Source: an uncultured Gemmatimonadota bacterium
GTDB taxonomy: Bacteria; SM23-81; DAOVCL01
Assembly (NCBI GenBank): GCA_964626665.1
Contig: CAZVGK010000007.1
Coordinates: 24,505 to 88,504 of the forward strand
DNA: 64,000 nt
Direction: 5' to 3'
Part shown: positions 420-60,579 of the stretch, in pieces
How the letters are laid out: every line of letters begins with the position of its first letter
How positions within the stretch are numbered: the first letter of the stretch is position 1
Translations under genes and position numbers: made by a program
The notes under the pieces: generated by a model
What the model saw: the letters and a program-made list of their open reading frames with translations, nothing else
Told to the model about the DNA's origin: nothing
Databases searched by the model: none

Positions 420-870
420 TTCCAATCCTCGGTCTCCTGACCTCAACATCCATCGGCATCAGGAGATGCCTCCCACAATACGCTCTTCTACCCAGCTTTA
501 GCTGGGGTAACCGCTTTAGGGCTTTAGCCCCTTTTGGAGTGCTATGACAGGGTCACAGCCTACGTCAACAGGAGTTACCACACTTCATAGTAACTCGCAC
601 TAAAGTGCGGTAGAAATTAAAATTCGCCCCCGAGATGGCGGAAGCCCTCTTCTGTCACCCTTCCCTTTTTGCCGTCAGAATCGGGGTTCTGACGGCTCGG
701 GCAGGGGATCTGACCGCTCAGCAGCTTAGATGTAGGGACAGACATTTATGTCTGTCCGCTTCCTTCGGACAGGTCTAAAGACCTGTCCCTACAGTTCATT
801 ATCTATGTAGGAGAGGTCTCCAGACCTTTCAAGAGCTGTCAGGAGGTAACTCCTGACAGCACATTTTTGC
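420..870. repeat. dense array of at least nine distinct short hairpin/palindrome modules (REP/BIME-like mosaic)
   Basis: Hairpins read directly: ggcatcaggagatgcc (455-476); cccagctttagctggg (488-507); gggctttagccc; gtcacagcc...gtcaacagg; cgcactaaagtgcggtagaa (594-615); gccgtcagaatcggggttctgacggc (671-697); nested gtagggacag..ctgtccctac (731-800); aggtctccagacct; gctgtcaggaggtaactcctgacagc (836-866). Each family recurs in other intergenic regions of the window. Confidence 0.85.
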
Positions 871-2932: not shown

Positions 2933-4262
2933 AGCGGTAATGGCGGTAATGATCCAGCAATTCCACCGCCTCCCTGAGGAACATCCTCACCCCCCTCTCC
3001 TTCAAATCCTTGGTCAACAGGGCTCTCACCCCTTGGTCCGCCCGAAATGAGGGGAAGGCCTGGCCGTAAAGTTCAATGACCTTCTCTAACATCAGGGAGT
3101 ACTCGGAGGTGGAGAGGGGGGAAAGGGTAATGGTTTTCCCCTGAGGGACAAGCTCCTCTATCCCCTGGTAGTAAGGGGAAGAGGAGGGGGTATAGCCGAG
3201 GACCAAAAATATATGGGAGGGACGCTGATAAAGGTAGGGGAAGGGACGCATACCGGAGTGAATGTACCCCTCCTCATCAACCCAACCTACATTTAGGCCT
3301 GGGTCCCTCTCCCCATCCCCCTTCTTTATCGCGGTCAACCGAGGAAGGTTGAGGGCGGTGCCCACCAGGCCCTTAAAGAGATAAAGGCCAATCCTCTGAT
3401 AGGGGGTCCACCAGAGGTGAAAGAGGGTCTCAGCCTCATCGATGACCAGCACCAACCCCTTTCCTCCTAATCCCTTAATCAGGTATCCTAAGCCGCTAAG
3501 CAGGTAACAGTAGATGTCCACTGCCGGGGTGTGATCTAAGAGGACCGGCAATTTCCAATATCTAAGGTAGTTTAAGTAATCCCTCCCCATCTCTTCCCCC
3601 CCGATCCAATTCCAGAGGGCAGGAAGGTCCTCATCCTGGGAGAGGAGCCAGAGGGCCTTGGAGAGGAAGAAATGGGGGGAGGGAAGGTCCATCCCCTTGG
3701 CTCTCCTCAATATTTCCGGGAAGCCTATCTCCTCATTCCCCTGGATAAACCTCAGGGTCCTGGTCAATTCCCGGTAGATGTGCTTGGGGCGATATGGGGT
3801 GACATCAAACCTATCGAGTTGCGCCCGGCCCACAGCGTATCCCTGCCGCAGGGCCCAGCCAAGGATATAGTCCAAGAGGTGGGTCTTCCCTGACCCATAC
3901 TCTCCCTCTATGGCCAGAACCTCACCGCCCTTGTGGGAGAAACCCTCAAAGGCCTGCTCCACCTCCCGCAGCTCCTTATCTCGGCCAAAGGTGAAGTCAC
4001 TGATGGCCAAGGAGGGAACCACTCCTAATCTGAAGGCCTCGATCATCCTTCGTGATCGGAAATCCCCCCCCTTGGTGGGGATATGCCGGGGCTGAGCAGG
4101 TGGTTTCTTCCTCTCGACCGGGGTAAGCAGCTTTAAGGTCTCCCGGTTCATCCAAAGGGTGAGGCCATTGGCAAACTCCACCAAGAGATGCATCCCTCGC
4201 CATCTGGTATCCACAACCTTCCCCTCACCTAAGCCTTGATGATAGACCTTACTCCCAATCAT
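2913..4262 (-). CDS. P-loop NTPase paralog 2 (GEYGSGKTHLLD Walker A; VLVIDEAE Walker B), BrxD/DUF2791-like
   Basis: 449-aa ORF with Walker A/B motifs and an N-terminal KOW-like region. It is a paralog of the preceding gene. Its start abuts the stop of the upstream gene (4262/4263). Confidence 0.75.
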   Translation of the reverse strand: MIGSKVYHQGLGEGKVVDTRWRGMHLLVEFANGLTLWMNRETLKLLTPVERKKPPAQPRHIPTKGGDFRSRRMIEAFRLGVVPSLAISDFTFGRDKELREVEQAFEGFSHKGGEVLAIEGEYGSGKTHLLDYILGWALRQGYAVGRAQLDRFDVTPYRPKHIYRELTRTLRFIQGNEEIGFPEILRRAKGMDLPSPHFFLSKALWLLSQDEDLPALWNWIGGEEMGRDYLNYLRYWKLPVLLDHTPAVDIYCYLLSGLGYLIKGLGGKGLVLVIDEAETLFHLWWTPYQRIGLYLFKGLVGTALNLPRLTAIKKGDGERDPGLNVGWVDEEGYIHSGMRPFPYLYQRPSHIFLVLGYTPSSSPYYQGIEELVPQGKTITLSPLSTSEYSLMLEKVIELYGQAFPSFRADQGVRALLTKDLKERGVRMFLREAVELLDHYRHYRYEPQGV

Positions 4263-5540
4263 TTAATACTCCTTATGATTCGCCTCTTCCTGAAGCTCCA
4301 TCTCCAAGGTCATCAATTGATCCCGAATAATCCTTCTGGCCATCTCCCTTCCTATGGGCTCAGCGGGATTGTTTCTCAGGAGGTGAAAGGCCTGAATTAT
4401 CCCCTTCACAAAGACCCGCCTATGGCCCACATCAGCATACCTCTCCTCATAGGCCACCTGGGCCAGGTGGGAGATGGTCTCCCTAAGGTTATCCCGGTGG
4501 AAGCTAAAGGGGGGATAGGCAGCCTGGTAGATAGCGGAGAGCTTCTCCCCCACTTCCCTGAGGAACTCCACCGGCTCCATCCCCAACTCCTCCAGGTTTA
4601 TCCTCACCCCACTGGGATTAAGCCCAGTGAGAACCCCGGAAAGCCTCTGACGCAGGGCTTCATAGACCTCCAATCTCTCCTCCAAGAGCTGCCTTTCATC
4701 GGGAATGGCATAGAAGATCATCACCCCGGGGAGCCTGCTGTTTCCACATTCATCTATCAGTTGCCTGAGGTTATCCATAGCTGCCCTCCTCTCCCGGGAG
4801 GAGGCAATGCTTAAACCTCTCTCCGCCTCATCAAAGAGGAGGACCAGGCCTGCATAGCCAATGGCCTTGATCCACTGGGCCAAGGATCTGAGCTGGCGGA
4901 AGGCGGTGGGCTTGTCCACCCTTTCGGTGATCCCATACTCATTGCGGATGGGGCGATCGATCTCTTCCCCCTTCAACCACTGGAGTATCCGTTCATAGTC
5001 CTGACCTCCCCTCTGCAGGGAGAGAAAGGCCTCCTTGACCGCATTGGCAAAGCTGGAGGACTCTATCCCTGCCAGGGAGCGGACATAGGAGGTGAGGTAC
5101 TCCTCCCCTTTCTCCCCAAACTCCTCCACCTTCTCCATATACCAGTTGCGGAGGAAACCATCGATCCCCCTCTCCCAGGGCTTTATCTCTCCCTCCCCCC
5201 TCATCGGATACATCAGGTTGGCCATCGTAGCCTTATAGACAAGCTCCAGCTTGTTGAAGGGGCATTCCACCGGGGAGAGGGCCACATAACTTACCGCATA
5301 ACCTCGCGACCAGCCTATATCCCTCATCCGGTAGAGGAAGTGGGTCTTCCCCCCTCCGTAATTGCCAACTACTAACTTGAAGGCCGAACCTCCTAACTTG
5401 ATAAAACTCTCTAAATACTCCTCATCTATTATCCCCAACCAGGGGTCCAACCCCACGGTAAAGGACTCTACCCCAAACTCTGGGGGGGTCCCGGTCCCCC
5501 CCAACCTGTTTATTATAGCCTTGGCCAACCCTGGTTTCAT
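4263..5540 (-). CDS. P-loop NTPase paralog 1 (GNYGGGKTHFLY Walker A; VLLFDEAE Walker B), BrxD/DUF2791-like
   Basis: 425-aa ORF with the same motif architecture as 2913-4262. It lies 4 nt downstream of the first gene. Confidence 0.75.
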   Translation of the reverse strand: MKPGLAKAIINRLGGTGTPPEFGVESFTVGLDPWLGIIDEEYLESFIKLGGSAFKLVVGNYGGGKTHFLYRMRDIGWSRGYAVSYVALSPVECPFNKLELVYKATMANLMYPMRGEGEIKPWERGIDGFLRNWYMEKVEEFGEKGEEYLTSYVRSLAGIESSSFANAVKEAFLSLQRGGQDYERILQWLKGEEIDRPIRNEYGITERVDKPTAFRQLRSLAQWIKAIGYAGLVLLFDEAERGLSIASSRERRAAMDNLRQLIDECGNSRLPGVMIFYAIPDERQLLEERLEVYEALRQRLSGVLTGLNPSGVRINLEELGMEPVEFLREVGEKLSAIYQAAYPPFSFHRDNLRETISHLAQVAYEERYADVGHRRVFVKGIIQAFHLLRNNPAEPIGREMARRIIRDQLMTLEMELQEEANHKEY

Positions 5541-7183: not shown

Positions 7184-9292
7184 ATGAGGGGCAAAAAGCT
7201 TATATTCTCCATATTTACCCTAATCCTGATGTTCGGGCTCTGGACAGGCTGTGGGAAGAAGGAGGGCCTTAACCCCGTCCAGGAAACCACTGGCACAGTT
7301 TTCATAGATACCCTTTACGCTTCCTCTGATACCCTGCAGGCTGGCGATACCCTGCTCATCACCGCCAGGGTAGTGGATGAGGACAACCTGCCCCGGCAGG
7401 GGGAGACGGTCAATTTCACTACCTCCTATGGAACCATAAGCCCAGGCTCGGCTACCTCGGATAGCCAGGGAGGGGTTTGGACCAACCTCATTGCCCAAGC
7501 CGATACCGCCGATCATCTGGCCAGGGTAACGGCAACGGTCACATCAAGTGGGGACAGCATGGGGCTCACCATCCCCGTTAAAGGAAGAAGGGAGGTGACC
7601 CCAGGCGCACCCTTTAATATCAGCCTAAAGATAACCCCCACCTCCCCCCTGTTGGCCAATGGGGCGGACACGGCCACCGTTGTGGCCACTGTAACCGACA
7701 TCCAGGGTCAGCCTGTTCCTGATGGAACACCGGTCACCTTCGTTGCGGGGGAGAAATTTGTGGATATCAACGGCGATGGCTCCTTCACCTCAGGGGTGGA
7801 CTCCCTGGTCATTGATGCCAACGGCGATGGGGAGTGGAATGCAGTGGGGAGCATCCCCTCAACGGCAACCACCTCCGGTGGCCAGGCTACCGTCCACTAC
7901 ATCTCCGGAACAAGCCCTCAAGCGGTCTACATCAAAGCCACCGCGGGGGCCGCCCAGAGCGATGGAGTAATCACCCTCAAGCCCTTGAGGCAAATCTGGG
8001 GTATAGACATTGGGGTGGACAGATCCTTCATTCAGGTCAAGGGGACCGGAGGAAATGAGGTGTGCGAGATCACGGCAACCGGACTGGACATATTCAACAA
8101 TCCCGTCCCTCAGGGATTGGAGATCTCCTTCCGCATCCTCCAGGGGCCAGCGGGAGGCGAGAGCCTGGAGGACTCCGGCTACGGGCCGATAACGAAGCTA
8201 ACCGACTCCGGCGGCCAGGCCAAGGTTCATCTACACAGCGGCACCCTCTCGGGAACCGTGCAAATCGAAGCCTTCTCCGATGGGGTCTATTCCCAGGCAA
8301 CTCAGGTGACGATCTGCAGTGGTCCCCCTTATGTTATCTCCCTGAGCGCAGATCCGCTAAACATAAGGGGTTGGGACATAGATGATGTCCCTTCAAATGT
8401 TTTGGCAATAGTCAGCGACAGGTTTGGCAATCCAGTTCCAGACGGCACCGCAGTTTACTTCTCTACGGAGGAGGGGCAGGTAGAGACGAAGAACAGCGTT
8501 ACCACAAATGGAAAGACTGAAGTTACCTACATCAGTTCCACTGACCCTTGGGATGACGGCATAGCCTGGGTGGTGGGCTCCACCAGAACCACCGATCCCC
8601 AGACAAGAACCATCAAGGACAGCGTGGGAATTATCGTTTCCGGACCGCCGGTTACCATCAACTTTATCGGGTATCCCCCGAGCTTGGAAGCGGACGGAAA
8701 GGACAAGGGCAAGATATTTGTGGAGGTCTTAGATGTAAACGGCCACTATGTTGTAGGGGGGACCGAGGTTAAGTTCGAGACGACTCAGGGGACGATCAGC
8801 GGCTCGGCAACAACTGAGGATGGGGTGCATGCCAGCATAGCCGAGGCCGAGATAACCAGTGAGATATTGGATAAGGACTACTCACTCACTACCCCTGATG
8901 ATGGAATAGGAGCTGTTGCTGCTGTAACGGCAAGATCAGGGTTGCTCGGGGGGGCTAGTGCCACTGTAAACATCAACTTCCGCACTACCTCGGCCAGTTC
9001 AGAAAATTCCTCCATTGATATTCCCGCTACGGTGGATATTAGTTCTCAAAATGCCTTCTCGGTTAATATCGAGGACTACTATGGCAACCCCTTGGGGGGA
9101 CACCAATTAAATGTAAGCTCCCAAGGAGGAGGGTCAGTTGCTCCTCCTTCTGGGACAACAAATGAATATGGAGTGGCCTCCGGTTTCATCTTCACTGCTC
9201 CCCCTGATTCGGGGAAGGTCTCCATCATAGTGGAAGATGCTGATCCAGGCTATGGAGGGATTACCTTGAGCAAAACGGTTGAGGTCAAATGA
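7184..9292 (+). CDS. surface lipoprotein with tandem bacterial Ig-like (Big/invasin-type) domains
   Basis: Signal peptide plus lipobox (LWTGC). Repeated ~90-aa units with the pattern TATVTD..G.PV.DGT.V.F. RBS AGGAGGA. The start is chosen at the internal ATG 7184 rather than 7154. Confidence 0.7.
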   Translation: MRGKKLIFSIFTLILMFGLWTGCGKKEGLNPVQETTGTVFIDTLYASSDTLQAGDTLLITARVVDEDNLPRQGETVNFTTSYGTISPGSATSDSQGGVWTNLIAQADTADHLARVTATVTSSGDSMGLTIPVKGRREVTPGAPFNISLKITPTSPLLANGADTATVVATVTDIQGQPVPDGTPVTFVAGEKFVDINGDGSFTSGVDSLVIDANGDGEWNAVGSIPSTATTSGGQATVHYISGTSPQAVYIKATAGAAQSDGVITLKPLRQIWGIDIGVDRSFIQVKGTGGNEVCEITATGLDIFNNPVPQGLEISFRILQGPAGGESLEDSGYGPITKLTDSGGQAKVHLHSGTLSGTVQIEAFSDGVYSQATQVTICSGPPYVISLSADPLNIRGWDIDDVPSNVLAIVSDRFGNPVPDGTAVYFSTEEGQVETKNSVTTNGKTEVTYISSTDPWDDGIAWVVGSTRTTDPQTRTIKDSVGIIVSGPPVTINFIGYPPSLEADGKDKGKIFVEVLDVNGHYVVGGTEVKFETTQGTISGSATTEDGVHASIAEAEITSEILDKDYSLTTPDDGIGAVAAVTARSGLLGGASATVNINFRTTSASSENSSIDIPATVDISSQNAFSVNIEDYYGNPLGGHQLNVSSQGGGSVAPPSGTTNEYGVASGFIFTAPPDSGKVSIIVEDADPGYGGITLSKTVEVK

Positions 9293-10734: not shown

Positions 10735-11700
10735 TTGCCGCGCATAAGAATAGGTGTAATTGGGGTTGGCCACTTAGGCAAGTATCATCTCCAGAGGCTT
10801 TTAGAGCTTCCCCTAGCCCAGGTGGTGGGCCTCTTTGATAAAGACCAGGCAAAGGGGGAAAGGGTAGCCAAAAGTCTGGGGGTGAGGGCCTGGCCCCACC
10901 TAAGTGACCTCCTCAAGGAGGCAGAGGCCGTAGTGGTTGCTGTCCCCACCAGCTCCCATTACGAGGTAGTTATAGAGGCCCTCTCTCAGGGGCTGGCGGT
11001 CCTGGTGGAGAAACCCCTTGCCGGTAGATTGGATGAGGGGGTGGAGATGGTGAAGATGGCCCAAAGCAAGGGGAAGGTCCTTCAGGTAGGACATATAGAG
11101 AGGTTCAACCCCGCCTTTACCTCGCTTAGGGGGTTGAAAATTGAGCCCCGGTTTATAGAGGCCCATAGGCTCTCCCCCTTCCACCCGCGGGGAATGGATG
11201 TGGCTGTGGTCTTGGACCTGATGATCCACGACCTGGACCTTGTCCTTGCCCTGGTCAACTCCCCTCTACAGTCCGTGGAGGCTATGGGGGTGGCTGTGGT
11301 CTCTGATCAGGAGGACATCACCAACGCCCGCCTTAGCTTTGAAAACGGCTGTGTGGCCAATCTCACGGCCAGCAGGATATCGGCCAAATCGATGCGCAAG
11401 CTGCGCATTTTCCAGAGGGATTCCTATCTCTCCCTCGATTTTATCCAGAAGAACACAGAGGTATACAGGCTTCTCCCCTCCTCAGGAGGGGTCAATGGCG
11501 AAAAGATATTTGACCTTGCTGGCCGGTACCTTATCCGCAAACTAATAACCGACAAGGGGGTTGATCCCCTCAAGGAGGAGCTCTCCTCATTCCTCTCGGC
11601 AATAGCAGGCCACCATCCTCCCCCTGTCTCTGGCCAGGAAGGGCTAAAGGCCCTAAGGTTGGCCCTGAGGGTGTTAGAGGCCATAAGATGCAGAACTTAG
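10735..11700 (+). CDS. Gfo/Idh/MocA-family NAD-dependent oxidoreductase (possible GnnA-like UDP-GlcNAc 3-dehydrogenase, by lipid A context)
   Basis: N-terminal Rossmann motif IGVIGVGHLGKYH. It lies immediately upstream of lpxB. Confidence 0.75.
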   Translation: MPRIRIGVIGVGHLGKYHLQRLLELPLAQVVGLFDKDQAKGERVAKSLGVRAWPHLSDLLKEAEAVVVAVPTSSHYEVVIEALSQGLAVLVEKPLAGRLDEGVEMVKMAQSKGKVLQVGHIERFNPAFTSLRGLKIEPRFIEAHRLSPFHPRGMDVAVVLDLMIHDLDLVLALVNSPLQSVEAMGVAVVSDQEDITNARLSFENGCVANLTASRISAKSMRKLRIFQRDSYLSLDFIQKNTEVYRLLPSSGGVNGEKIFDLAGRYLIRKLITDKGVDPLKEELSSFLSAIAGHHPPPVSGQEGLKALRLALRVLEAIRCRT

Positions 11701-11756
11701 CTCGCTTCGCTCGCAAAGTTCTCCATAGGGTCTCACGACCCTTCCCGACCTACAGT

Positions 11757-11815
11757 CGGGACTCGGATTGCCCATCTGTCACCCTTGAAGGGGGCTTACC
11801 CCCTTCAAACAACCC
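11757..11815. repeat. repeat containing hairpin gaagggggtaagcccccttc, shared with 57566-57620 and 19826-19858
   Basis: gtttgaagggggta(a/t)gcccccttcaagggtgacag..gcaatccgag occurs in both places. The spurious N-terminal extension of the lpxB ORF covers it. Confidence 0.6.
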
Positions 11816-11858
11816 CCAACCTATCGGAATTTCCAAGAAATCCCGATGGGTCAAGTTA

Positions 11859-12971
11859 ATGGTCCTGGCCGGTGAGGCTTCCGGGGACCTGCATGCCGCT
11901 GGCCTCATCCATCAACTAAAGAAGCTCCTCCCCTCAGTTACCTTCTTCGGAATGGGAGGGGCAAAGATGGAGGAGGAAGGGGTTGAACTTATCTACCACC
12001 TGCGAGATCTCTCCCTCATTGGGTTTACGGAACCATTGAGGAAGCTCCCCTTCTTTCGGCGGGCAATGGGGAAGATGACCAAGCTCCTCAAGGAGAGGGA
12101 GCCCGATCTGGTAATCCTGGTGGACTACCCTGGTTTCAACCTGAGATTTGCCCGCCAGGTAAAAAAGAGAGGGATTCCCCTTGTCTATTACATCTGCCCT
12201 CAGGTCTGGGCCTGGGGGAGATGGCGGATAAAGAAGATTGCTAAGCTGGTGGATAGGGCCATAGTCTTTTTCCCCTTTGAGCGTAATCTCTATCAACGGG
12301 CAAAGCTGAGGGCCGATTTTGTCGGCCATCCTCTGATAGAGATTATCAGGGAGGAGCAGAAGGGAGAGGTTTTTCGGCGGCAGATGGGGATAGAAAAGGG
12401 AGAAGAGGTTCTGGGCCTCTTTCCAGGAAGCAGGGAAGGTGAGGTAAGAAGAATCCTTCCCCTGATGCTGCAGGCTTACAGGTTGTTGGCAAAGAAGGTT
12501 AAGATGAGGGCCTTCTTGGCTCTCTCTCCAAATATCCCCCTTGATCTGGTCAAGGGTTATGAGGTGGAGATCCTCCAGGGGAGAAATTATGAGCTTATGG
12601 CTGGCTCATCTCTGGTCTTAGTGGCCTCAGGAACGGCAACCATAGAGGCCACCATCTTAGGGACGCCAATGCTAATCATCTACCGCATTTCCCCCCTCTC
12701 CTGGCTCTTAGGGAGGTTGCTGGTGAGGCTTCCCTATATAGGGATGGTCAACATATTGGCCGGGAAACAATTGGTCCCTGAGCTCATCCAGAGGAGGGCA
12801 AACCCCCCGCAGATAGCCGCTGCGGCCTGGAGATTGCTGAATGATGAGGGGAGAAGGGAGGAGATGAAGAGGGGATTAGAAAAGGTGAAAAGAGGGCTGG
12901 GAGAGCCAGGTGCCTACCTCAGAGCTGCCCAAATAGTGCACGAGGTCTTCAGGGGTGGCCGGCAAGCTTAG
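11859..12971 (+). CDS. lpxB: lipid-A-disaccharide synthase
   Basis: MVLAGEASGDLHAAGLIHQLKK is a typical LpxB N-terminus. The internal ATG at 11859 is chosen as the start. Confidence 0.85.
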   Translation: MVLAGEASGDLHAAGLIHQLKKLLPSVTFFGMGGAKMEEEGVELIYHLRDLSLIGFTEPLRKLPFFRRAMGKMTKLLKEREPDLVILVDYPGFNLRFARQVKKRGIPLVYYICPQVWAWGRWRIKKIAKLVDRAIVFFPFERNLYQRAKLRADFVGHPLIEIIREEQKGEVFRRQMGIEKGEEVLGLFPGSREGEVRRILPLMLQAYRLLAKKVKMRAFLALSPNIPLDLVKGYEVEILQGRNYELMAGSSLVLVASGTATIEATILGTPMLIIYRISPLSWLLGRLLVRLPYIGMVNILAGKQLVPELIQRRANPPQIAAAAWRLLNDEGRREEMKRGLEKVKRGLGEPGAYLRAAQIVHEVFRGGRQA

Positions 12972-16919: not shown

Positions 16920-17490
16920 CAACCAGGAGACAGTTCACGGGGCGGCAAAGCCGCAAAGTTTAAAGAAAAAGACTCACCACGGATTTACACGGAATAACAC
17001 GGGAAGAGAATAGAGACTGCCGTCAGAATCGGGATTCTGACGGCTCAGGAATTTCCATTTTCTATTTTCTTGGATATAGGTTTGTTTCTGTGTCTTTCCG
17101 TGAGATTCCGTGGTGAGTTGTTATGATCTTCTTATCTATTCGAGTAGATTCGTTTATTCGTGTCATTCGTGTTCCTTCTTTAAGGAGTTGTGGGAGGCAT
17201 CTCCTGATGCCAATAAAAATGGTGCTGTCAGGAGTTATCTCCTGACAGCTCTTAAAAGGTCAGGAGACCTCTTCCACAAAAGAGGGATCTAACAGACCCC
17301 AATGCCGGATAGAGAGATTCCTACCGCACTTTAGTGCGGGCCTTAAGTCAATTACTAAATCCGAATGACGAAAAAGGCTTAAACCCAATAAACCTATGAG
17401 TAACGAGCTATGATTGCATTTTCCCCAGCAGCGGAATCCGTGTAATCCGTGGCTATTGTTTATCCGTGAGGTTCCGTGGTAAACTCTGCG
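16920..17490. repeat. intergenic hairpin/repeat mosaic (ccgtcagaatcgggattctgacgg 17019-17044; ggaggcatctcctgatgcc 17194-17213; gtgctgtcaggagttatctcctgacagc 17222-17249; 20-mer 17321-17340; 65-bp repeat 17398-17462 shared with 21990-22056)
   Basis: Modules match those at 420-870, 34836-34878, 57106-57134 and elsewhere. Confidence 0.85.
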
Positions 17491-19799: not shown

Positions 19800-20030
19800 A
19801 CTCTTTGGGTAGAAGGGGGTGTCGTCTTCTTTAGCGATGCCCCCTTCTGTTATTGGTTAGACTCCGATTTTCATTTCGGGAATTGACTGAGCGGTCAAAT
19901 GTCCTCATCTGACCGTCCCTCCGTCAAGCCGTCAGGTGCCTTCACCTGAAGGCGATAGAGAAAGGTGGTAGAATTGGGGTTCTGCCACCTCGCTTTTGGT
20001 TTACTTTGAGTTTAAATAACAAAGAAAGAG
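19800..20030. repeat. composite hairpin element (gaaggggg..cccccttc 19826-19858; tgagcggtcaaatgtcctcatctgaccg 19888-19914; caggtgccttcacctg; ggtggtagaattggggttctgccacc 19965-19989)
   Basis: The same three-hairpin composite recurs at 36368-36434 and 60606-60706. Confidence 0.8.
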
Positions 20031-21829: not shown

Positions 21830-22095
21830 TAGATGACAGAAGAGGGCTTCTGCCACTCCCTGGGGAGCCTTCAACCACCCGTCCCGAACCGGAGCGGGTC
21901 GGGGAAGCTGGGTAGATGGGTTCTACCACACTTTAGTGTGGGTCTTCTATCCATGTCCGCTGAAGGGGCTTAAGCCCCGGGAACCCAACGAGTAACGAGC
22001 TACGATTGTAGTTTTTCCCATCAGTGAAATCCGTGTGATCTGTGGCTGTGCTTGGTTGCGGCCTTGTTGCACTGAGAATCCCTGGAAGAAAGGAC
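21830..22095. repeat. intergenic repeat cluster (20-mer variant ctaccacactttagtgtggg 21923-21942; 65-bp repeat 21990-22056; aatccgtgtgatctgtggctgtg..gttgcggccttgttgc 22035-22082, shared with 17437-17470 and 26597-26645)
   Basis: Direct sequence matches to the other regions listed. Confidence 0.8.
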
Positions 22096-26149: not shown

Positions 26150-27160
26150 AGATCTAGCGCAGCTTCGCCTCAAACCGACGAGGCGGGAAGCCTGCCCCGT
26201 GGGTAGTTTCACACCCTACGGGGCAAGTAAGGAAATCCTAAATCCGAATATCGAAATCCGAGACAAATCCCAATTCACCCCGTTAGATAGACAATTCTTT
26301 ATCTAACGGGGTGAACCAAATTCCAAATTCTCTAAACTAAGAACCCTTTGCCAAAAGCAGGTTTGCCTCAGGCTGCTTTCCACATTTGAATTTCGATGTT
26401 GCTCGCCCCGTTAAGTAGCTGGTTTTTCATTAGAACTCCTTGTGGTGAAAATTAGCAAAACCAGGGGAATCACTTACTGACGCATAAATAGATACTTAAC
26501 GGGGTAAAAATTTCGTGCTTCGAATTTAAAGGCAGCAGGGTTTATTGTTCAGCCCAAAACCTGACACAAATTTTAAGATCTTGCCTTATGAAGCCAGCTA
26601 GACATAGCGCAACAAGGCCGCAACCAAACAACAGCCACGGATTACACGGATAGAACATTCACCCTGCACTTATATTAAGTGCAGGGCAGGTGACACGAAT
26701 GGATGAATCTACACTAATAGATAGTTGTATAAATGCACCCCCTACATTTCTACCCGGCTTTAGCCCATTTGGAATGCTGTGACCGTGTCACAGCATGCGT
26801 CAACAGGGTTGACGCACTCTATATAAGGGCCTAAAGGCCCTGAACCCGCACTAAAGTGCGGTAGAAGTCTTCTACTCATCACAACCTGATAAACCTTGTC
26901 AAAAAAACAAGATCTTGCAAGATTGCAGTACAGCGGAGTAAGCAATCGGCTACGCGACTTATCAGGTGGTCATTCAGGACTTAAATTAGGTAGACCCTCC
27001 CCTTGGTATAATTAGGACGCAGATTTTCGCCGATAACCGCAGAAAATTAAAATCTTGACAATCTGCGTTCACCCCGTTAGATAAGATGTTAAAACTCATT
27101 AAATTTGATAAAAGACCTAATCTAATTATCTAACGGGGTTTATCTGCGTCCAAAAAAGGA
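26150..27160. repeat. 1-kb non-coding repeat mosaic: 14-bp-stem hairpin caccccgttagata..tatctaacggggtg 26275-26315; ggtggcagaa-family partial; caagatcttg element 26903-26930; hairpins 26775-26825; 20-mer 26845-26867; caccccgttagataa/ttatctaacgggg inverted repeat 27072-27150
   Basis: Read directly, with matches to other intergenic regions. Confidence 0.8.
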
Positions 27161-29824: not shown

Positions 29825-30250
29825 ACGGAGAAAGCAATTAAAATTGAGAATTAAACCTTCCTGCCATCAGGAGAGGACTTCTGATGAGGGGATGAAAATA
29901 GGAATTGGAAAATGGAAATTCCCTGAACTGGTAGGTCCCTCATCTAGCGGCTCTGAGGAATCCTTCTACCGCACTTTAGTGCAGGGTCCGTTTCCGTCAG
30001 GGCAGGAGCCCAGACGGCACACCCTCAGCTAAAGCCGGGTAGAAAGGGTTCTGCCACCTCAATCCATTTTCGGTGCCTGATGTTATGAATAATATGTGTT
30101 GTTTATCCTGTCTAAAAACGTAATTTCCTATAAGGTAGGGCAGTTGACGAATTGCTCCTACAACCTATGCAGGCCAATATATCTATTTGAGGCTTCAGAG
30201 GCAAGGGCAAAAAGGGCTTGATTTAGAGGATGTAATTTAATATATAAAGG
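29825..30250. repeat. intergenic hairpin cluster (gagattccgtggtgaac; aaaataggaa IR-family fragment; 20-mer variant 29966-29985; gctaaagccgggtagaa; ggttctgccacctc)
   Basis: Matches other arrays. Confidence 0.7.
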
Positions 30251-35399: not shown

Positions 35400-36520
35400 C
35401 AATTAGCAATGCAAATGACACCCCTCCCCCCTTCCGTGAAAGAATAGTCTCCTTAATTTGTGTTGATGATAGCGGGGGCTACAACTAAGCAATCAAGGGG
35501 CTTTGGCTAGCATGTTGATCCTAAAAATGTGCTGTCAGGAGGCAACTCTTGACAGCACTTAAGGGAAACCTCTTCCACAAAATCCCCGAGCGGTCAGATC
35601 TCACATCTAAGCCATCAGAATCCCGATTCTGGCAGTGAAGATGGTAGAAAGAAACAGGGAACCGCAGATTTACGCGGATATGCGCTGGTAGGGCTCTGCC
35701 CTACCAGGCAAGGATTCCACCGCACTTTATTGCGGGTCCTTCTATGGAGCTAAAGCCCCATAACCCCAGCTAAAGCTGGGTAGAATGGAGAAAATAGGAA
35801 GTGTCCCTATTTTCTATTTAGTGTCTGTCCGGGAATCCAGTTTTGAGGGAGATGTCATTGCGAGGAGTGAGGGACGAACGACGAAGCAATCCCTTTATTT
35901 CCAGGAGATTGCTTCGCTCCTTTCAGTCGCTCGCAATGACGGAAATATTTCAATTTTGGTAGTTTTCGGACAGACACTATTTAGATATCCGAGCGTATTT
36001 CCCAGACTCTGAATCTGTGAATAGGGCTTTACGTTGTTTAATTCCACTGCTGCCCAAAAAACATAGAGCAAAGGATAAGAAAGCCTAACAAGGCGCTGCA
36101 CCTGACCGCCAACAGCGTGGCAGTTTTCTAAAGTTTTGTGCCCTATCAAAGTTTAGTGTTTTTTTTTCAAAGTTTGTGCTCCAAATTTTCAAACCACTAT
36201 TCAGTCTGAGGCGACACGGTATGCTTTGCGAATGAAGGGGTAAACTCTCCCCAATCATATGCTTCGGATTTCGAAATTGAACCTTAGCTGGTTTCATAAG
36301 GCAACATCTTAAAATTTGTGCCAAGTTTTAGGGTCAAAAAATAGACTCTACTGATTTGAAATCCTCCTGAGCGGTCAGATGCCCTTGGCTGACCACAGGA
36401 TGGAGAGGTGGCAGAATCGGGGTTCTGTCACCTCAAGCAAAATTTGTGTCAAGTTTTGCAGCTACCGATTTTCCCCGTCACTCAATCCTCGATTTGCTTA
36501 ATATCAGGTGCCTCCCTTCG
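35400..36520. repeat. 1.1-kb non-coding region of stacked repeats: gtgctgtcaggaggcaactcttgacagcac 35529-35558; cagaatcccgattctg; 20-mer variant 35717-35736; cccagctaaagctgggtagaa 35763-35785; MITE-like element with GTGTCTGTCCGG terminal IRs ~35822-35975; four copies of AAARTTTGTGYCAAGTTT 36130-36470; three-hairpin composite 36368-36434
   Basis: Read directly. ORF 35785-36012 lies wholly within the IR element and is considered spurious. Confidence 0.8.
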
Positions 36521-40559: not shown

Positions 40560-41790
40560 AAAGATGAAAACCTATTTTCTGGAAGATTCTTATATAATCT
40601 GCACTATAATCTTGCAATATCTTGTTTTTGAGCAAAGTTTCCCAAGTCGGCTTGAACAGTCAACTTCTACCGCACTTTAGTGCGGGTTAAAGGCCTTTAG
40701 ACCCCTCTTATTAAGGGCTAAAGCCCTTACCTACCCCCCGCTTTAGCGGGGGTAGAAGTGTAGGGGTCGCATTTATACGATCCGCCCGGGCTCCGATTCA
40801 TCGGAGCCCGCACAAGGAACCAAGGGATTTACATGACCTGACAGTGGCAGAAGCGGGGTTTTGCCACCTCAAAAAAGAACACTACAAGTAGAAGCAACGA
40901 TCCCCGAGCAACAATGGTCTTTTGGTTGCGGCTGCGCTGTGGGAATCTGCGTTCGCCCCGTTAAAGAATTTAGCGACCGTAAGGAGTTAATTTATCTCTA
41001 AATCCCTGTTTTTAAGACCTCATTAATTTCCTCAATCAATCCAAATGTCTGCAGAAATTACATAGCAATTCCCTTGCCATCCAATCATACCTAAAGGGGA
41101 AGATTTCACCCTTCAAATCATAATTTGTTCCTTATTAAGAGCTTAAACGGAAAGATTCTTCCCATAATGTTTAGTAGAACTGGATTTGACCCTGGCTTTG
41201 GGGATTGCAATTTACCCTAAGATTCTCGGAATGCAAAGGAAAAAAATAGAAAAAAATAGGAAAAATAGGGACACTTCCCATTTTCTCTGGGGGTTCTCTC
41301 CTGCGCGGGTTCGGAAGAGCCCTTCTCAAAGGGCAGGCATCTTAAGGGGAGATGGATCTGTGAGAATTTTGTTGGTAGAGACAGTACAAAGAAGAATGAC
41401 TCCTAACCAGGTAACAGCCTAAGAGGGATAGCCCCAAAAATGGGAAGTGTTCCTATTTTCCTAAGGTGGAGGGACTTTTCATCTTGACAGAGGGGGATGG
41501 CTTTACTAACTTGTAGCATAAGAATCTCCATTTTTAGACAGGATTGTCAGGATAAGCGAACCTCCCCGCCCACAAGGCGGGGCATCCAAAACAGTCTCCT
41601 CCCCCTTGATGGGGGAGGACTAAAGAGGGGGTGAAAATTATATCCGCTTTCCCCCTCACCCTAACCCTCTCCCACTAGGGGAGAGGGAACTATAAGGATG
41701 TCATTCATCCCCGTTCACAGAACGGGGTATTCTGATAGGTTTTCATAAAAATCATGTAAATCCTGTCCATCCTGTCAGAGAAACCCACCG
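40560..41790. repeat. 1.2-kb non-coding repeat region (caagatcttg element 40598-40630; 20-mer 40665-40686; gggctaaagccc; ccccgctttagcgggggtagaa 40733-40760; gtggcagaagcggggttttgccac 40844-40867; ttagcgaccgtaagg 40969-40990; IR pair aatagggacacttcccatttt / aaaatgggaagtgttcctatttt ~41262-41460)
   Basis: Read directly. ORF 41186-41422 lies inside the IR element and is considered spurious. Confidence 0.8.
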
Positions 41791-57074: not shown

Positions 57075-57700
57075 CGGATTAGGCAACAAGGAACCACGAG
57101 ATAATGTGCTGTCAGGAGTTACCTCCTGACAGCCCTTGAGACCTCTGGTTGTGCTGGTAGGGCTCTGCCCTGACGGAAATGGTTCTACCGCACTTTAGTG
57201 CGGATTATTATGGAGTGCGTCAACCCTGTTGACGTGGGCTGTGACAGGAGTCACAGCACTCCAAATAGACTATCCGTCCGAGCCGTCAGAACCCTTGTTC
57301 TGACGACAAAGGAGAAGGTGGGAGAAAAGGGAAATAAGTTGGTAATTTGGAAAGTCAAGACTAAAGATGTGACCCCATATTTCACCATATTTCTCCACCT
57401 TATTTGCCCAAATGACCCACATTGTAGGGGTTTGATTCATCAAACCCGCTGCGGTGAACGAGGGGTTTGGAGTGAATCCCGAATTATCGGAATTCCACTT
57501 GACTTTTAATTGAATTTGTGGTAATTTTACGTTTCGGAATTTCTAAGAAATTCAAAAACGTAGGGGGATGTTTGAAGGGGGTATGCCCCCTTCAAGGGTG
57601 ACAGCGGAGCAATCCGAGCTGGCGTAGGATTGCGGAGCGCCATAGGGCCGGTGAGGCCCTCTGGAGAAGTTAGCGACCGTAAGGGAGCTAAGTTCTGGAT
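57075..57700. repeat. intergenic repeat cluster (gtgctgtcaggagttacctcctgacagc 57106-57134; gtagggctctgccct; 20-mer 57184-57203; gtcaacagggttgacg..gtcacag; 115-bp repeat 57283-57395, shared with 61021-61130; gaagggggtatgcccccttc 57581-57600; ttagcgaccgtaagg 57655-57680)
   Basis: Direct matches. ORF 57198-57509 is considered spurious. Confidence 0.8.
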
Positions 57701-57710
57701 AAGGAGGTGA

Positions 57711-57965
57711 TTGAAGATGAAAACTCAAACCCTGATGCAACAGCTTGAAGGTTTTGAAAAGGATATGGATTGGTTAAACAGTAGGTATGAGGAGCTGAAG
57801 AGTAAATATCCGGATGAGTTCGTGGCAGTTTTAAGAGAAAACATTGTAGATCATGATAGAGATTTGAGCAAGCTGATGGGCAGATTAGAAACCAGATTTC
57901 CCGAGGATTTCCCAAGAATTGCGATAAAGTTTGTGAGCACAAAGAGAGTTGAGTTGATCCTATGA
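57711..57965 (+). CDS. small protein, DUF5678-like, partner of the downstream aspartic protease
   Basis: 84 aa. Its ATGA overlaps the next gene. Lower G+C. Confidence 0.5.
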   Translation: MKMKTQTLMQQLEGFEKDMDWLNSRYEELKSKYPDEFVAVLRENIVDHDRDLSKLMGRLETRFPEDFPRIAIKFVSTKRVELIL

Positions 57966-58420
57966 AAATCAAAGGGAGCTGGGGTGAGTTTGATGCCCCT
58001 TACCTGAGGGGAGCGTTTATTTGTCACAAACTGAATCTTATGAGATATATCGATCTCTTGATTGACACAGGCGCAAGCAGCACAACTATTTTAGATAATG
58101 ACGCGCTAAGATTGGGTATAGATTATAACAAGATAGAAAAGTTGGCAGAAGGAACAATGGGAATAGGTGGGTCTGTTGACACTTATGTTATACCAGATGT
58201 AATGATAGCATTCAGAACTATGGAAGGGATCCACAGAGAGAAATTTGGTAATGTATTTGTTGTCAGACACATGCCCAGAAACAGAGAAGAGGAAGAAAGA
58301 ATAAAAAGAATACCATCACTTTTGGGCAGGGATTTTCTCAATAAGTACAGCTTATTTTTGAATAGGAAGGATAAGATCGTCACAATTAGTGATAAATCGG
58401 GGGCAGCTCTCAGAAAATAG
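57962..58420 (+). CDS. retropepsin-like (clan AA) aspartic protease
   Basis: LIDTGASSTTI active-site motif. 152 aa. Confidence 0.65.
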   Translation: MKIKGSWGEFDAPYLRGAFICHKLNLMRYIDLLIDTGASSTTILDNDALRLGIDYNKIEKLAEGTMGIGGSVDTYVIPDVMIAFRTMEGIHREKFGNVFVVRHMPRNREEEERIKRIPSLLGRDFLNKYSLFLNRKDKIVTISDKSGAALRK

Positions 58421-58440: not shown

Positions 58441-58700
58441 GTTACTTACTTATGGCAAAACCTCTGCGCATTGAGTTGGCCTGGAGCGCTGTATCACCTC
58501 ACAGACCGAGGGAACGGGCGGTAGGTGATCTTTCGCTATGAGCGTGATCGGCGACATCACATGCTTGCGTATGTCAGGGGACCAAGCTCATGTATCTGGC
58601 TCAGAGGTAGAATGGGAGATCAATGTGCCAATTGGCAAGGAGCTTAGGAGGAATAGATTCTGTGTTCTGGTGTTCTGGGGACACCATACTTGTTTTTTAA
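58441..58700 (+). pseudogene. decayed N-terminal remnant of a COG1943 IS200-like / RAYT-type Y1 (HUH) transposase
   Basis: Frame 1 gives MAKPLRIEL. The +1 frame continues PGALYHLTDRGNGR, then TAG. This matches the conserved (R)PLRIE.PGA.YHVT.RGN.R N-terminus of this family. Downstream, ..HHMLAYV..P...IWL looks like a degraded HuH (HAYVLMPNHVHLL) region. Confidence 0.5.
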
Positions 58701-58779
58701 CATAAGCGTAGAGTGAGAACACGGTCAGCTCTTGATATTTGACCAATACTTCTATAGGCTTGTTTAAGACTTAGAATTG

Positions 58780-59045
58780 ATCAGGAAAGGAGGAATCACC
58801 ATAAAATTGTAAAAACCTTTTTTCCCAATTTTCTCCATACTATTTCGTTATTTTCTCAAGCTCATCGGTCGTCCCTTCAACAAATCGCATATCTGTTGCT
58901 CGGACCTTTAAAATCTTCATACCTATCATCCGTCTAAACGCTTACCTTCCCTCTGAGGAATGCCCTCGGCGCAATCGGTTTAATCCTCTTCTTTCTACTT
59001 GTACTCAAGCAAACGGTCGCTTATATTTTACTCATAGGAAGATAT
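58780..59045. repeat. ~260-bp direct repeat, copy 1 (copy 2 at 60095-60545); the pair flank a toxin-antitoxin pair
   Basis: ataaaattgtaaaaacctttttcccaattttctccatactatttcg...caatcggtttaatcctcttctttct...cgcttatatt is shared with copy 2 at roughly 85-90% identity by eye. Confidence 0.7.
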
Positions 59046-59433
59046 GTCCCCAAGGGTTTTCGATCTTCCTCCTGTATTCGTTGACCAACTTTTGCCTGCC
59101 TAAATAGAGGAGAGAGAATCTATGCAGGATGGTTAATATGCGGGGTCATCGGCGAGGTTAACCCCAAAAGTTCCTTGACCGTGGGCTCCTGAAAGAGTAT
59201 ATTGGTATGTAGTTGGGAGAAAGATGGTGATAAGCAAATGCAAATGGATAATGAGGTGGCAGAAGAGAGCTTCTGCCACCTCAAACAGAATTTTTCCGCT
59301 GTTATCCAGTCAAGAGCGGGGTGTTATACGGAAACCATATGAGCCGTAGTTCGGTAAAAAATATACAACTTGCACACTGGCAGCCAAAAAATAAATTCGA
59401 GTATATGTGCTGCCCCACTATAAGGAGGTAAAA

Positions 59434-59658
59434 ATGAATCCAAACGATATTTCCGTATTCGACCTAAGTCCACCGGAGAAGTTACAGTTGGTGGAAGACC
59501 TCTGGGATGATCTCGCGGCTACGCCTTCAGAGGTTCCTGTGCATGAATGGCAAAAAGAAGAGTTGGCTCGCCGAAAAGCTAACTTGATGAGCAAGCCGGG
59601 TTCGGGGCTTTCGTGGGACGAAGTCAAACGCAGGATTCGAACTCGCTATGGCCGTTGA
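59434..59658 (+). CDS. antitoxin, putative addiction-module component (TIGR02574-like)
   Basis: GGAGG RBS + ATG at 59434. LSPPEKLQLVEDLWDDL motif. Confidence 0.65.
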   Translation: MNPNDISVFDLSPPEKLQLVEDLWDDLAATPSEVPVHEWQKEELARRKANLMSKPGSGLSWDEVKRRIRTRYGR

Positions 59659-59884
59659 ACTAATAATCGCGCAGGAAGCACAACAGGACGTCGATGAGGC
59701 ATATAGCTGGTATGAAGATCGTAGACCTGGCTTGGGGGAAGAGTTTCTTACCTGTGTGGACGCGTGTATTCAGGCGATCTGTCGTGTGCCCGAACTGTAT
59801 GCCAAAGTCCACGAGAAGATAATCGTCTACAGCATCTTTCATACATCCCGGGATTCAAAAAAGTGGAGGGATCGCTTGGTTTGA
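59648..59884 (+). CDS. ParE/RelE-family toxin, possibly carrying an internal deletion
   Basis: Overlaps the antitoxin by 11 nt. ParE-like N-terminus and a C-terminal ..IFHTSRD. About 12-15 residues expected before the final strand appear to be missing. Confidence 0.5.
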   Translation: MAVELIIAQEAQQDVDEAYSWYEDRRPGLGEEFLTCVDACIQAICRVPELYAKVHEKIIVYSIFHTSRDSKKWRDRLV

Positions 59885-59974
59885 CTTGCCAATCTTCGCC
59901 GAACCTGTCAGTCCACCTGACTGGTGTTCCGCTACGCCTCACACCGGCAGGTGACTTTATTGTTAGCAACTATA

Positions 59975-60010: not shown

Positions 60011-60094
60011 GGCTCCCCGGGTCAGTGGGGTCTGCCCTTGACATTGGATAAACACTTGCATAGACTTGTTTAAACTTACAAGTAATCAGAGAGG

Positions 60095-60545
60095 GGAAAG
60101 CCCCCCATAAAATTATAAGAACCTGTTTTCCCAATTTTCTCCACACTATTTCGTGTCTGTCCGGAAATACCCATATTTCTTGTCATTCCGGCGATCTTTA
60201 AGCCGGTATCTACTTAAAATCAGTAATGGATTCCCGCTAACGGTAGGCGGGAATGACAAATTGGGACAGACGATATTTCCTTATTTTCTCAGGTTTATCG
60301 GTTGTCCCTTCAACAAATTGCATATCTGTTACCAAGTATCCATTGTTTGAACCTTTAAAACCTTCATGCCCATCATCCGTTCTAAAGGCCCTCATCCCCT
60401 CTGACGTATGCCCTCTCCACTTTGATTAAACCCAATTCTTTGGGCTTTTTGGTGTGCTCAGAGTATGTCCTCAACGCAATCGGTTTAATCCTCTTCTTTC
60501 TGCTTGTGCTCAGATAAGCCGCCGCTTATATTCTACTCATTAGTG
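60095..60545. repeat. ~260-bp direct repeat, copy 2, interrupted by a ~125-bp hairpin insertion (60160-60285) with GTCTGTCCGG-type terminal inverted repeats
   Basis: Aligns with 58780-59045 on both sides of the insertion. The insertion has tgtctgtccgg...ccggcg / cgggaatgacaaattgggacagacg inverted ends, related to the element at 35822-35975. Confidence 0.65.
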
Positions 60546-60579
60546 AAATACGGCTTAAGTTCCCCCCTCAAATCTGCCG

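Follow-up and report, generated by a model that had tools for sequence, protein, structure and literature searches.

A 64,000-nucleotide stretch from an uncultured Gemmatimonadota bacterium (contig CAZVGK010000007.1, positions 24,505 to 88,504; hereafter the window) was found to carry, between its genes, a family of short hairpin repeats typified by the 21-mer TTCTACCGCACTTTAGTGCGG. With up to three mismatches allowed, this sequence matched the window 9 times, compared with 0 matches in 100 dinucleotide-preserving shuffles, and 9 of 9 copies were intergenic, lying between long open reading frames (ORFs). A preliminary description of the same DNA had reported a 20-mer present at least nine times in the 64 kb; this was confirmed at the same nine sites, for which that description gave positions 1-2 nucleotides (nt) off. 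The repeat system accounts for a large part of the repetitive intergenic DNA of the window. We consider it probable that the 21-mer is the left repetitive extragenic palindromic (REP) unit of a gene-less, REPIN-like element, and that its partner, here termed RAYT-B, is an enzyme of the REP-associated tyrosine transposase (RAYT) type encoded elsewhere in the genome.

Anatomy and distribution of the repeat

Alignment of the copies together with their flanks placed the 21-mer as the left unit of a composite of 70-150 nt, in which two inverted units, TTCTACC...GGTAGAA, enclose a variable set of small hairpins. The left half of the composite reads 5'-TTCTACC-[CGCAC TTTA GTGCG]-G-GTTnn-[GGGCC TTTA GGCCC], followed by the variable hairpins, and the right half reads [GGGC TAAA GCCC]-nnACC-[CCAGC TAAA GCTGG]-GGTAGAA-3'. 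A unit consists of a 5' foot (T-TCTAC), a G+C-rich stem of 5-7 bp, a TTTA loop, and a 3' GGT(T), usually with a second small hairpin next to it. Of the nine copies in the window, five belong to complete composites, and the other four (starting at 17319, 21921, 57183, and 60877) are left units that are solo or decayed. They are listed here with two further features discussed below; z compares the folding of the single strand with that of shuffled sequences.

486-615, minus strand: complete composite with left unit TTCTACCGCACTTTAGTGCGA (595-615), inner hairpins, and right unit CCCAGCTAAAGCTGGGTAGAA (486-506); z = -3.55
17319-17339, plus strand: left unit TCCTACCGCACTTTAGTGCGG of a decayed composite, the index copy of the preliminary description
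21868-21941, plus strand: right-type unit with the nested loop hairpin CCCGTCCCGAACCGGAGCGGGTCGGG (21878-21903), ending in GGGTAGAT, and, after a 3-nt spacer, the left-unit variant TTCTACCACACTTTAGTGTGG (21921-21941)
26748-26866, minus strand: complete composite with left unit (26846-26866), inner hairpins GGGCCTTTAGGCCC, CGTCAAC..GTTGACG, and GCTGTGAC..GTCACAGC, and right unit GGGCTAAAGCCGGGTAGAA; z = -6.70
29964-30044, plus strand: complete composite with left unit TTCTACCGCACTTTAGTGCAG (29964-29984) and right unit CTCAGCTAAAGCCGGGTAGAA, the latter with an imperfect stem; z = -6.01
35715-35785, plus strand: complete short composite with left-unit variant TTCCACCGCACTTTATTGCGG (35715-35735) and right unit CCCAGCTAAAGCTGGGTAGAA; z = -2.50
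40665-40757, plus strand: complete composite with left unit (40665-40685), GGCCTTTAGACC, TAAGGGCTAAAGCCCTTA, and right unit CCCCCGCTTTAGCGGGGGTAGAA; z = -4.71
57183-57265, plus strand: left unit (57183-57203) with inner hairpins CGTCAAC..GTTGACG and GCTGTGAC..GTCACAGC; the right unit is missing
60877-60897, plus strand: solo left unit with GCCTTCAGTCAAT... downstream, a variant also seen after the copy at 17319
732-800, no strand assigned: classical REPIN of family A, other than the studied repeat, GTAGGGACAGACATTTATGTCTGTCCG ... CGGACAGGTCTAAAGACCTGTCCCTAC
58452-58551, plus strand: decayed N-terminal fragment of a Y1 transposase gene, of the PLRIEYPGAxYH type, unrelated to the repeat

As single-stranded DNA (ssDNA), the composites fold into rows of hairpins, at times closed by pairing of TTCTACC with GGTAGAA (z between -2.5 and -6.7); the fold of 40665-40757 combines this closing stem with inner hairpins. 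Sibling palindromes with other arms and the same layout, which had also been described, were recovered at 486-506, 30024-30044 (imperfect), 35765-35785, and 40735-40757. Each of them is the right end of a composite (hairpin-GGTAGAA) whose left end is a copy of the 21-mer, and a fifth right end lies at 26748-26766. At least 88 complete composites were counted in related loci beyond the window. The composite at 486-615 has an ortholog, 85% identical, at about 3253-3390 of L012, a contig from a Candidatus Zixiibacteriota metagenome-assembled genome (MAG). The intergenic region around 17319 has its ortholog in L134 and L056, between genes that are ~86% identical to those of the window; there, a complete composite begins with the same left unit and ends in CCCCCCGCTTTAGCGGGGGTAGAAG, and in the window its right half has been replaced. 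Within 21868-21941, the arms CCACAC/GTGTGG represent a compensatory double change.

The unit was then characterized in a larger set. Among window palindromes with perfect 5-bp arms and any 4-nt centre, the TTTA/TAAA centre was found in 15 of 135. From the window and related loci, 211 unique units were collected by the TCTAC motif and a perfect stem alone. The loop was TTTA in 191 of them, always on the strand bearing the 5' TCTAC, and the 3' flank was GGT in 170; the base preceding TCTAC was T in these units, a set itself gathered on TCTAC. The stems differed (CGCAC, CCGGC, CCAGC, CCGAC, CCCCGC, and others), and left and right units retained systematically different stems. The super-family of palindromes proposed in the preliminary description, with a common layout and varying arms, was thereby upheld. 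Covariation was examined in the 100 units lacking the exact bait core: 88% of the cells were paired, and 117 two-sided changes were counted against 37 +/- 4.5 after shuffling, a value of 117 being reached in 0 of 500 shuffles. When the registers of the same alignment were slid, pairing fell to 24-51%. Since compensatory stem changes exceed those of the shuffles and slid registers pair poorly, the hairpin is under selection; the conserved letters are the unpaired foot, the loop, and the 3' GGT, and the stem is kept by pairing.

In a species-representative genome collection, a 19-mer core of the repeat was detected in 26 stretches, namely 11 loci of a Zixibacteria MAG, 9 of an unclassified MAG (GMC4), 3 of a MAG that carries the label 'Bacteroidales', and one locus each in a Patescibacteria single-amplified genome (SAG) and in two further genomes. 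Metagenome stretches with the exact 21-mer numbered more than 115 among the matches listed, a figure to be read as 'at least', and ~1 Mb of fetched DNA contained 219 copies with at most 3 mismatches. Extragenic location was the rule: 167 of 170 unique copies lay outside ORFs of at least 150 aa, and 3 lay inside. Orientation relative to the flanking genes, which the preliminary description had proposed to count, was scored on copies of the window and related loci and showed no clear bias, with 35 copies co-directional as (+,+) versus 27 as (-,-), 19 between divergent genes, and 10 between convergent genes. The longest similarity of the window was to L012 (82% identity over 2.4 kb, the only long match there), and other parts matched metagenome contigs at 85-88%. 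Within the window, Rfam gave no match at the gathering threshold, a tRNA scan found none, and the HIP1 site (GCGATCGC) did not occur in the 64 kb. A cyanobacterial source was rejected on the missing HIP1 site and the L012 match, and the similarities were taken to suggest a Zixibacteria-like bacterium.

The 'Bacteroidales'-labelled MAG deserves separate mention. In three loci (L001, L015, and L026), the exact 21-mer is part of copies of another conserved element of ~100 nt, which reads ...GATGATT-TTCTACCGCACTTTAGTGCGG-TTTAAT...CCGGCTTTAGCCGTTAATGC. If the binning is right, the unit is also present in another phylum-level lineage.

RAYT-B is bracketed by the same units

The window contains no intact Y1 gene. 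Three related loci fished solely by the repeat, L009, L077, and L129, carry a Y1/HUH gene, RAYT-B, that is directly abutted by units. L009 is a Patescibacteria SAG of 31% G+C in which RAYT-B lies between pheS and pheT; L077 and L129 are metagenome contigs with a G+C content of 0.50, as in the window, and have two of the window's other intergenic repeat modules in common with it. Homologues of RAYT-B (P0121-P0240), many of them from Patescibacteria, were obtained by the protein alone, and the loci reached from this side (L147, L149, L150, L152, L154, and L155) all showed a left unit upstream and a right unit at or after the stop codon. RAYT-B was bracketed by TTCTACC-hairpin ... hairpin-GGTAGAA units in 8 of 8 independent loci, drawn from Patescibacteria, unclassified MAGs, and contigs sharing the repeat repertoire of the window. 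In every one, a left-type unit (TTCTACC-stem-TTTA-stem-GGGT) was positioned 36-174 nt upstream of the ATG and a right-type unit (CC-stem-TAAA-stem-GGTAGAA) at or just past the stop, and in 4 loci the stop codon is the TAG of GGTAGAA itself. Patescibacteria carry RAYT-B inside one 'composite' (left unit, gene, right unit); at the Zixibacteria-type loci, the gene is flanked by whole composites or right units.

The arrangement that marks a REPtron, units flanking a single-copy RAYT, was thus observed at all eight RAYT-B loci of other genomes, and because the same two units bracket the gene, we regard the gene-less composite as the counterpart of a REPtron-like RAYT-B locus. Most of the RAYT-B clusters listed comprise 1 contig each and none more than 10; the 10 contigs of P0122 collapse to two places with identical flanking repeat structure. 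The order pheS-RAYT-B-pheT is common to two Patescibacteria that share 47% identity in PheS and 56% in RAYT-B. RAYT-B thereby behaves like a domesticated, vertically inherited gene rather than an active insertion sequence (IS). No tnpB gene adjoined RAYT-B at the examined loci, and the traits of IS200/IS605 elements (a multi-copy, near-identical transposase, Y---Q, and tnpB) were not found in RAYT-B.

Separately, L009 harbors G+C-rich, REP-like hairpins with a 5' GTAG foot (GTAGGGGCAG...CCTGCCC) at 5105-5135 and 7305-7335. They sit within the pheS and pheT frames of this AT-rich contig and leave the reading frames unbroken.

The invariant or near-invariant motifs of RAYT-B are W..YFLT.STF.H.PYF, SIA.NHYH.KF, WQ, GYIIGNLLKHKEV, and FSSY. 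Its HuH motif is NHYH, WQ is invariant or nearly so, and the downstream FSSY resembles the 'SS' tail of class 2. RAYT-B is 25% identical to RAYT-A, the canonical RAYT described in the next section, with HuH, WQ, and Tyr in register. The Pfam model Y1_Tnp scored RAYT-B at 24.3 bits against a cut-off of 23, a borderline value, and the NCBIfam IS200 model at 19.1 bits against a cut-off of 55. An AlphaFold2 model of the protein reached a pLDDT of 92.9, and its best Foldseek match in the PDB was 4er8_A, the E. coli TnpA_REP bound to REP (E 1.7e-8; TM 0.63 target-normalised and 0.55 query-normalised), which ranked above the ISDra2, IS608, and IS200 transposases. The modelled structure of RAYT-B is a Y1 HUH fold like that of TnpA_REP. 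The most likely partner of the repeat is a divergent RAYT-like gene, absent from the window and present in contigs with the same repeat repertoire.

Competing partners and explanations

The preliminary description had connected the repeat to RAYTs and pointed to a Y1 remnant at 58441-58700 in the window. The general link stood, with RAYT-B as a partner other than this remnant, and the remnant itself did not serve. A decayed Y1 sequence is present, at 58452-58551 rather than over the longer span, and comprises only ~35 N-terminal codons (MAKPLRIE / frameshift / PGALYHLTDRGNGR*VIF..ERDR) with one frameshift and one stop. It lies 1.2-2.3 kb from the nearest copies of the repeat and adjoins none. 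The 42-aa peptide gave no significant match in Pfam; decayed relatives were seen in L049 (MARKPRIEYPGAFYHVIARGNRREPIF...) and L133 (...CLMPNHYHM). Its N-terminus is presumably that of the large COG1943 group, and, judging by its motifs, it looks like a member of a different Y1 subfamily that is not associated with REPs. That group corresponds to subclass 2.1 (NH[YF]H, Y[IV]HLNP), for which Quentin et al. report no association with REPs (PMC6006769). Being a fragment of just ~35 codons from another subfamily, and one that adjoins no copy, the remnant was rejected as the partner.

A canonical RAYT does exist in the lineage. L012 encodes a Y1 protein of 171 aa, RAYT-A, beside the ortholog of the 486-615 composite, and its score of 118.4 bits with the NCBIfam model REP_Tyr_transpos (cut-off 80) identifies it as a bona fide RAYT. 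What flanks it on both sides are classical REPINs, GTAGGGACAGGGCTTTAGCCCTGTCCG ... CGGACAGACATAAATGTCTGTCCCTAC, of a second family (family A) with the canonical 5'-GTAG foot and doublets of the form GTAGGGACAG-nnn-TTTA-nnn-CTGTCCG. Family A, the cognate repeat of RAYT-A, has one copy in the window (732-800), four sites in L012 (2485-2580, 3178-3235, 3388-3450, and 4001-4060), and flanks RAYT-A in L012 and four further metagenome loci; the RAYT-A homologues P0002 (84% identity), P0007 (86%), and P0016 (64%) are flanked by family-A REPINs too. The stop codon of RAYT-A in L012 is the TAG of the downstream family-A GTAG.

REPs of E. coli fall into the subclasses Y, Z1, and Z2, and on that model the studied units might be one more REP subclass of a single system, recognized by RAYT-A through their GTAG. 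A full composite (~3253-3390) is located inside the family-A REPIN cluster just upstream of RAYT-A in L012, a family-A REP often follows within a few nt of a composite, TTTA loops occur in both families, and RAYT-A clears the curated cut-off. Nonetheless, we judge this explanation unlikely. Each of the five RAYT-A loci (L012, L027/28, L029/30, and L031) has GTAGGGACAG... REPINs on either side, and a composite of the studied family is near L012 only. The studied units bracket RAYT-B at Patescibacteria loci without any family-A REP. Their GTAG, moreover, is 3' of the hairpin, and TnpA_REP enzymes act on 5'-GTAG-hairpin, not on the inverse strand (PMC8266576). RAYT-A was accordingly rejected as the partner of the studied repeat.

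About as improbable is the explanation that the hairpins are kept mainly for a host role in RNA or DNA, such as mRNA 3'-end protection, attenuation, or protein binding, with the transposase link incidental or historical. Roles of this kind are documented for classical REPs (PMC3733652). The composites do fold far better than shuffles, their stems are compensatory, and the copy at 17319 has been retained at an orthologous site across species. However, the copies show no clear orientation bias, they are commoner between divergent than between convergent genes, unlike REPs at 3' ends, no T-run follows the hairpins, and Rfam returned no match. The host role also leaves the units that bracket RAYT-B unexplained. 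Conservation of the unpaired foot and the loop argues for recognition of ssDNA by a protein rather than for a generic stem.

The composite could hardly be an ordinary miniature inverted-repeat transposable element (MITE) moved by a DDE transposase: terminal inverted repeats (TTCTACC/GGTAGAA), a size of 70-150 nt, a variable interior, the lack of genes, and high copy number would fit, but these repeats measure merely 7 bp, no target-site duplication appeared in orthologous or allelic alignments, no DDE transposase was adjacent, and a Y1/HUH gene was the only gene between such ends in 8 of 8 loci.

The reading of the repeat as a REP unit with RAYT-B as its partner has to be set against several observations, the first of which concerns the foot. 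In canonical REPs, the foot of the hairpin bears an unpaired GT[AG]G on its 5' side (PMC6006769, PMC3733652). TnpA_REP acts on the 5'-GTAG-hairpin strand but does not act on the inverse one, and GTAG has been proposed to guide the choice of cleavage site (PMC8266576). The preliminary description had taken a GTAG adjacent to the palindrome as the hallmark of REPs; in the studied repeat, the hairpin is preceded on its 5' side by TTCTAC, and the only GTAG follows at the 3' side, on the complementary strand. The canonical 5' foot is therefore lacking. The composite reads 5'-CTAC-hairpin ... hairpin-GTAG-3' and is neither a head-head nor a tail-tail dimer of a GTAG REP. The remaining traits of REPs were all observed, the repeat being short, palindromic, extragenic, of high copy number, and arranged in inverted, foldable doublets.

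The same reading is weakened by features of RAYT-B and of the sampling. No homologue of RAYT-B was detected in the 64-kb window by tblastn (best E 0.097). With the NCBIfam model REP_Tyr_transpos (NF047646), RAYT-B scored 41.8 and 35.8 bits, below the cut-off of 80, although 41.8 exceeds the 19.1 bits given by the IS200 model, and sequence and profile searches of the PDB returned no Y1 protein. Its Tyr motif, GYIIGNLLKH, corresponds to Y---NL and fits neither the class 2 signature Y---NP nor the class 1 signature Y---Q of Quentin et al. (PMC6006769, Table 1). At the Zixibacteria-type loci, the gene-proximal units on the two sides are direct rather than inverted. The exact 21-mer served to find most of the loci, and the stem statistics of the left unit are biased by this. 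A set of 147 joined-flank queries revealed neither a clean empty site nor a target-site duplication. Two pairs of contigs (L048 versus L112 and L058 versus L073) differ in having a solo right unit or a right unit followed by a 7-9 nt spacer and a full composite. Insertion by an existing unit, recombination with a circular intermediate, and direct-repeat deletion would all produce these polymorphisms, which therefore do not separate insertion from deletion.

With these points considered, the 21-mer as a REP unit served by RAYT-B is still the reading we favor, and a mechanism can be outlined for it. RAYT-B, presumably encoded elsewhere in the genome of the window, would bind the hairpin as folded ssDNA along with the foot on its 5' side, and would cleave and rejoin ssDNA, most likely at the replication fork. 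Mobilisation of this kind might copy, maintain, or rearrange units, as has been proposed for TnpA_REP and REPs. In Marinomonas, changing GTAG to GTAC led to cleavage at GA and GT sites (PMC8266576); by analogy, and as speculation, the CTAC foot may select the conserved GT directly 3' of the hairpin for cleavage. This idea hinges on the register of the foot, the last C of which can pair within the stem.

More tentatively, with a likelihood that we would put somewhat below even, RAYT-B and the TTCTAC-footed REPs may form a clade of domesticated Y1 nucleases, so far unclassified, whose guide has been retargeted (CTAC for GTAG), which would predict a cut at the conserved GT 3' of the hairpin. The gene would be fixed as a syntenic single copy in Patescibacteria and would have reached a Zixibacteria-like lineage by horizontal transfer; its gene-less doublets would have multiplied there to hundreds of copies while the unit stayed near-identical across phyla.

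Neighbouring repeats and comparison with known systems

The loop of the right unit is itself occupied by other elements. The hairpin CCCGTCCCGAACCGGAACGGGTCGGG has repeatedly been inserted there (CTA|AAG), at 21878-21903 in the window (CCCGTCCCGA...TCGGG) and in L040, L101, L102, and others, and this recurrence in many related loci makes the loop seem a preferred insertion point for another mini-element. The right-unit loop of L073 carries a nested family-A REP.

Several small modules accompany the composites. A perfect 26-nt palindrome, GCTGTCAGGAGTTACCTCCTGACAGC, occurs in intergenic DNA at 835-860, 17224-17249, 35531-35556, and 57108-57133, often upstream of composites, and also in L012. 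The hairpin module GGTGGCAGAA-n6-TTCTGCCACC was found at 634-659, 19964-19989, 21832-21857, 36407-36432, 40843-40868, 59255-59280, and 60679-60704, and the hairpin module CCGTCAGAACCCCGATTCTGACGG at 672-695, 17020-17043, and 60833-60856; both are common to RAYT-B-bearing metagenome contigs, and the intergenic regions are mosaics resembling bacterial interspersed mosaic elements (BIMEs). A further module, AATCTTGCAAGATCTTGTTTTT, contains the perfect palindrome ATCTTGCAAGAT followed by a TTGACA-like sequence (26903-26924, 40608-40629, and 60727-60748); two of the copies (26903 and 40608) precede the left end of a composite by 35-40 nt. The module could be operator- or promoter-like.

Insertions of other kinds were also noted. 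At 16972-17118, the window carries an insertion of ~150-270 nt, with ACTCACCACGGA...TCCGTGGTGAGT as its inverted ends, that L134 lacks in the orthologous intergenic region; it resembles a separate family of MITEs with many CACGGA motifs. Another of ~157 nt (11700-11856), absent from the orthologue L067, separates the adjacent or overlapping ORFs 10735-11700 and 11688-12971; it forms the hairpin GAAGGGGG...CCCCCTTC, is bounded by AACTTA and AGTTA, and is a reverse-orientation relative of 57540-57700. Two direct copies of a non-coding segment of ~300 nt, 80-89% identical and with no match in Rfam, occupy 58720-59040 and 60030-60550; the second is split at ~60160-60285 by an insert of ~125 nt whose ends, GTCTGTCC...GGACAGAC, resemble family-A arms. 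Small paired ORFs typical of toxin-antitoxin modules are located in repeat-rich regions at 57711-58420 and 59407-59885 and at 2685-3145 of L012, where a HicB/HicA-like pair separates repeat clusters that adjoin in the window.

The chief example on record of a domesticated transposase whose satellite repeats are inherited vertically is REP/RAYT; it has been studied mainly in Proteobacteria, and its definition rests on the 5' GT[AG]G foot. The system described here extends the phenomenon to Patescibacteria, with their tiny streamlined genomes, and to a Zixibacteria-like lineage, and provides a natural test case for the rule that relates guide to cleavage site in Y1 enzymes. Three aspects are new: the non-canonical foot, a RAYT-like clade that curated models miss and that is undescribed in the searchable literature, and the conservation of the unit across phyla. 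Literature searches combining RAYT or TnpA_REP with Patescibacteria, candidate phyla radiation (CPR), or Zixibacteria, and searches with the motif strings, returned nothing relevant. REP finders that require GT[AG]G would miss TTCTAC-footed repeats. The near-identity of the unit across phyla poses the question of horizontal transfer versus a strong constraint imposed by the enzyme.

The remnant at 58452-58551 compares best with TIRYT / TnpA_Y1 subclass 2.1, on account of its N-terminus (PLRIE.PGA.YH..RGN.R..IF) and of the NHYH carried by related fragments; with only ~35 decayed codons, this assignment rests on a short motif. RAYT-B, for its part, recalls the transposases of IS200/IS605 elements and their gene-less derivatives as a Y1/HUH enzyme associated with subterminal ssDNA hairpins and a 5' tetranucleotide guide, and the gene-proximal units on one strand at the Zixibacteria-type loci add to the likeness. 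Unlike those transposases, it is single-copy, syntenic across distant Patescibacteria, and without tnpB or Y---Q, and the gene-less elements far outnumber the gene. The Marinomonas REPtron Mb, with its short group-3 REPs, resembles the present system in its perfect 5-bp stems, its TTTA loop, and the presence of a tetranucleotide guide on the 5' side of the hairpin; its tetranucleotide, however, is GTAG, placed 2 nt from the stem, and its partner is a subclass 2.5 / group 3 RAYT (DH[LF]H, YI[VI]ANP) (PMC8266576).

The closest resemblance is to the REP/REPIN-RAYT systems exemplified by the E. coli TnpA_REP REPtron with its BIMEs and by the REPINs of Pseudomonas. Shared with them are high-copy extragenic hairpins with a conserved unpaired foot, gene-less inverted doublets, a bracketed, single-copy, vertically inherited Y1/HUH gene, mosaics of small repeats, and the fold match to TnpA_REP (4ER8). 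The differences lie in the 5'-TTCTAC foot, in a partner that falls below the NCBIfam RAYT cut-off and carries Y---NL, in left and right units with distinct stems, and in a unit that recurs, even as the exact 21-mer, from one phylum to another, in contrast to the genus or species specificity usual for classical REPs. The system retains the logic of REP/RAYT, with a hairpin and foot, inverted doublets, and a single-copy Y1 gene in a REPtron, combined with another foot and another partner.

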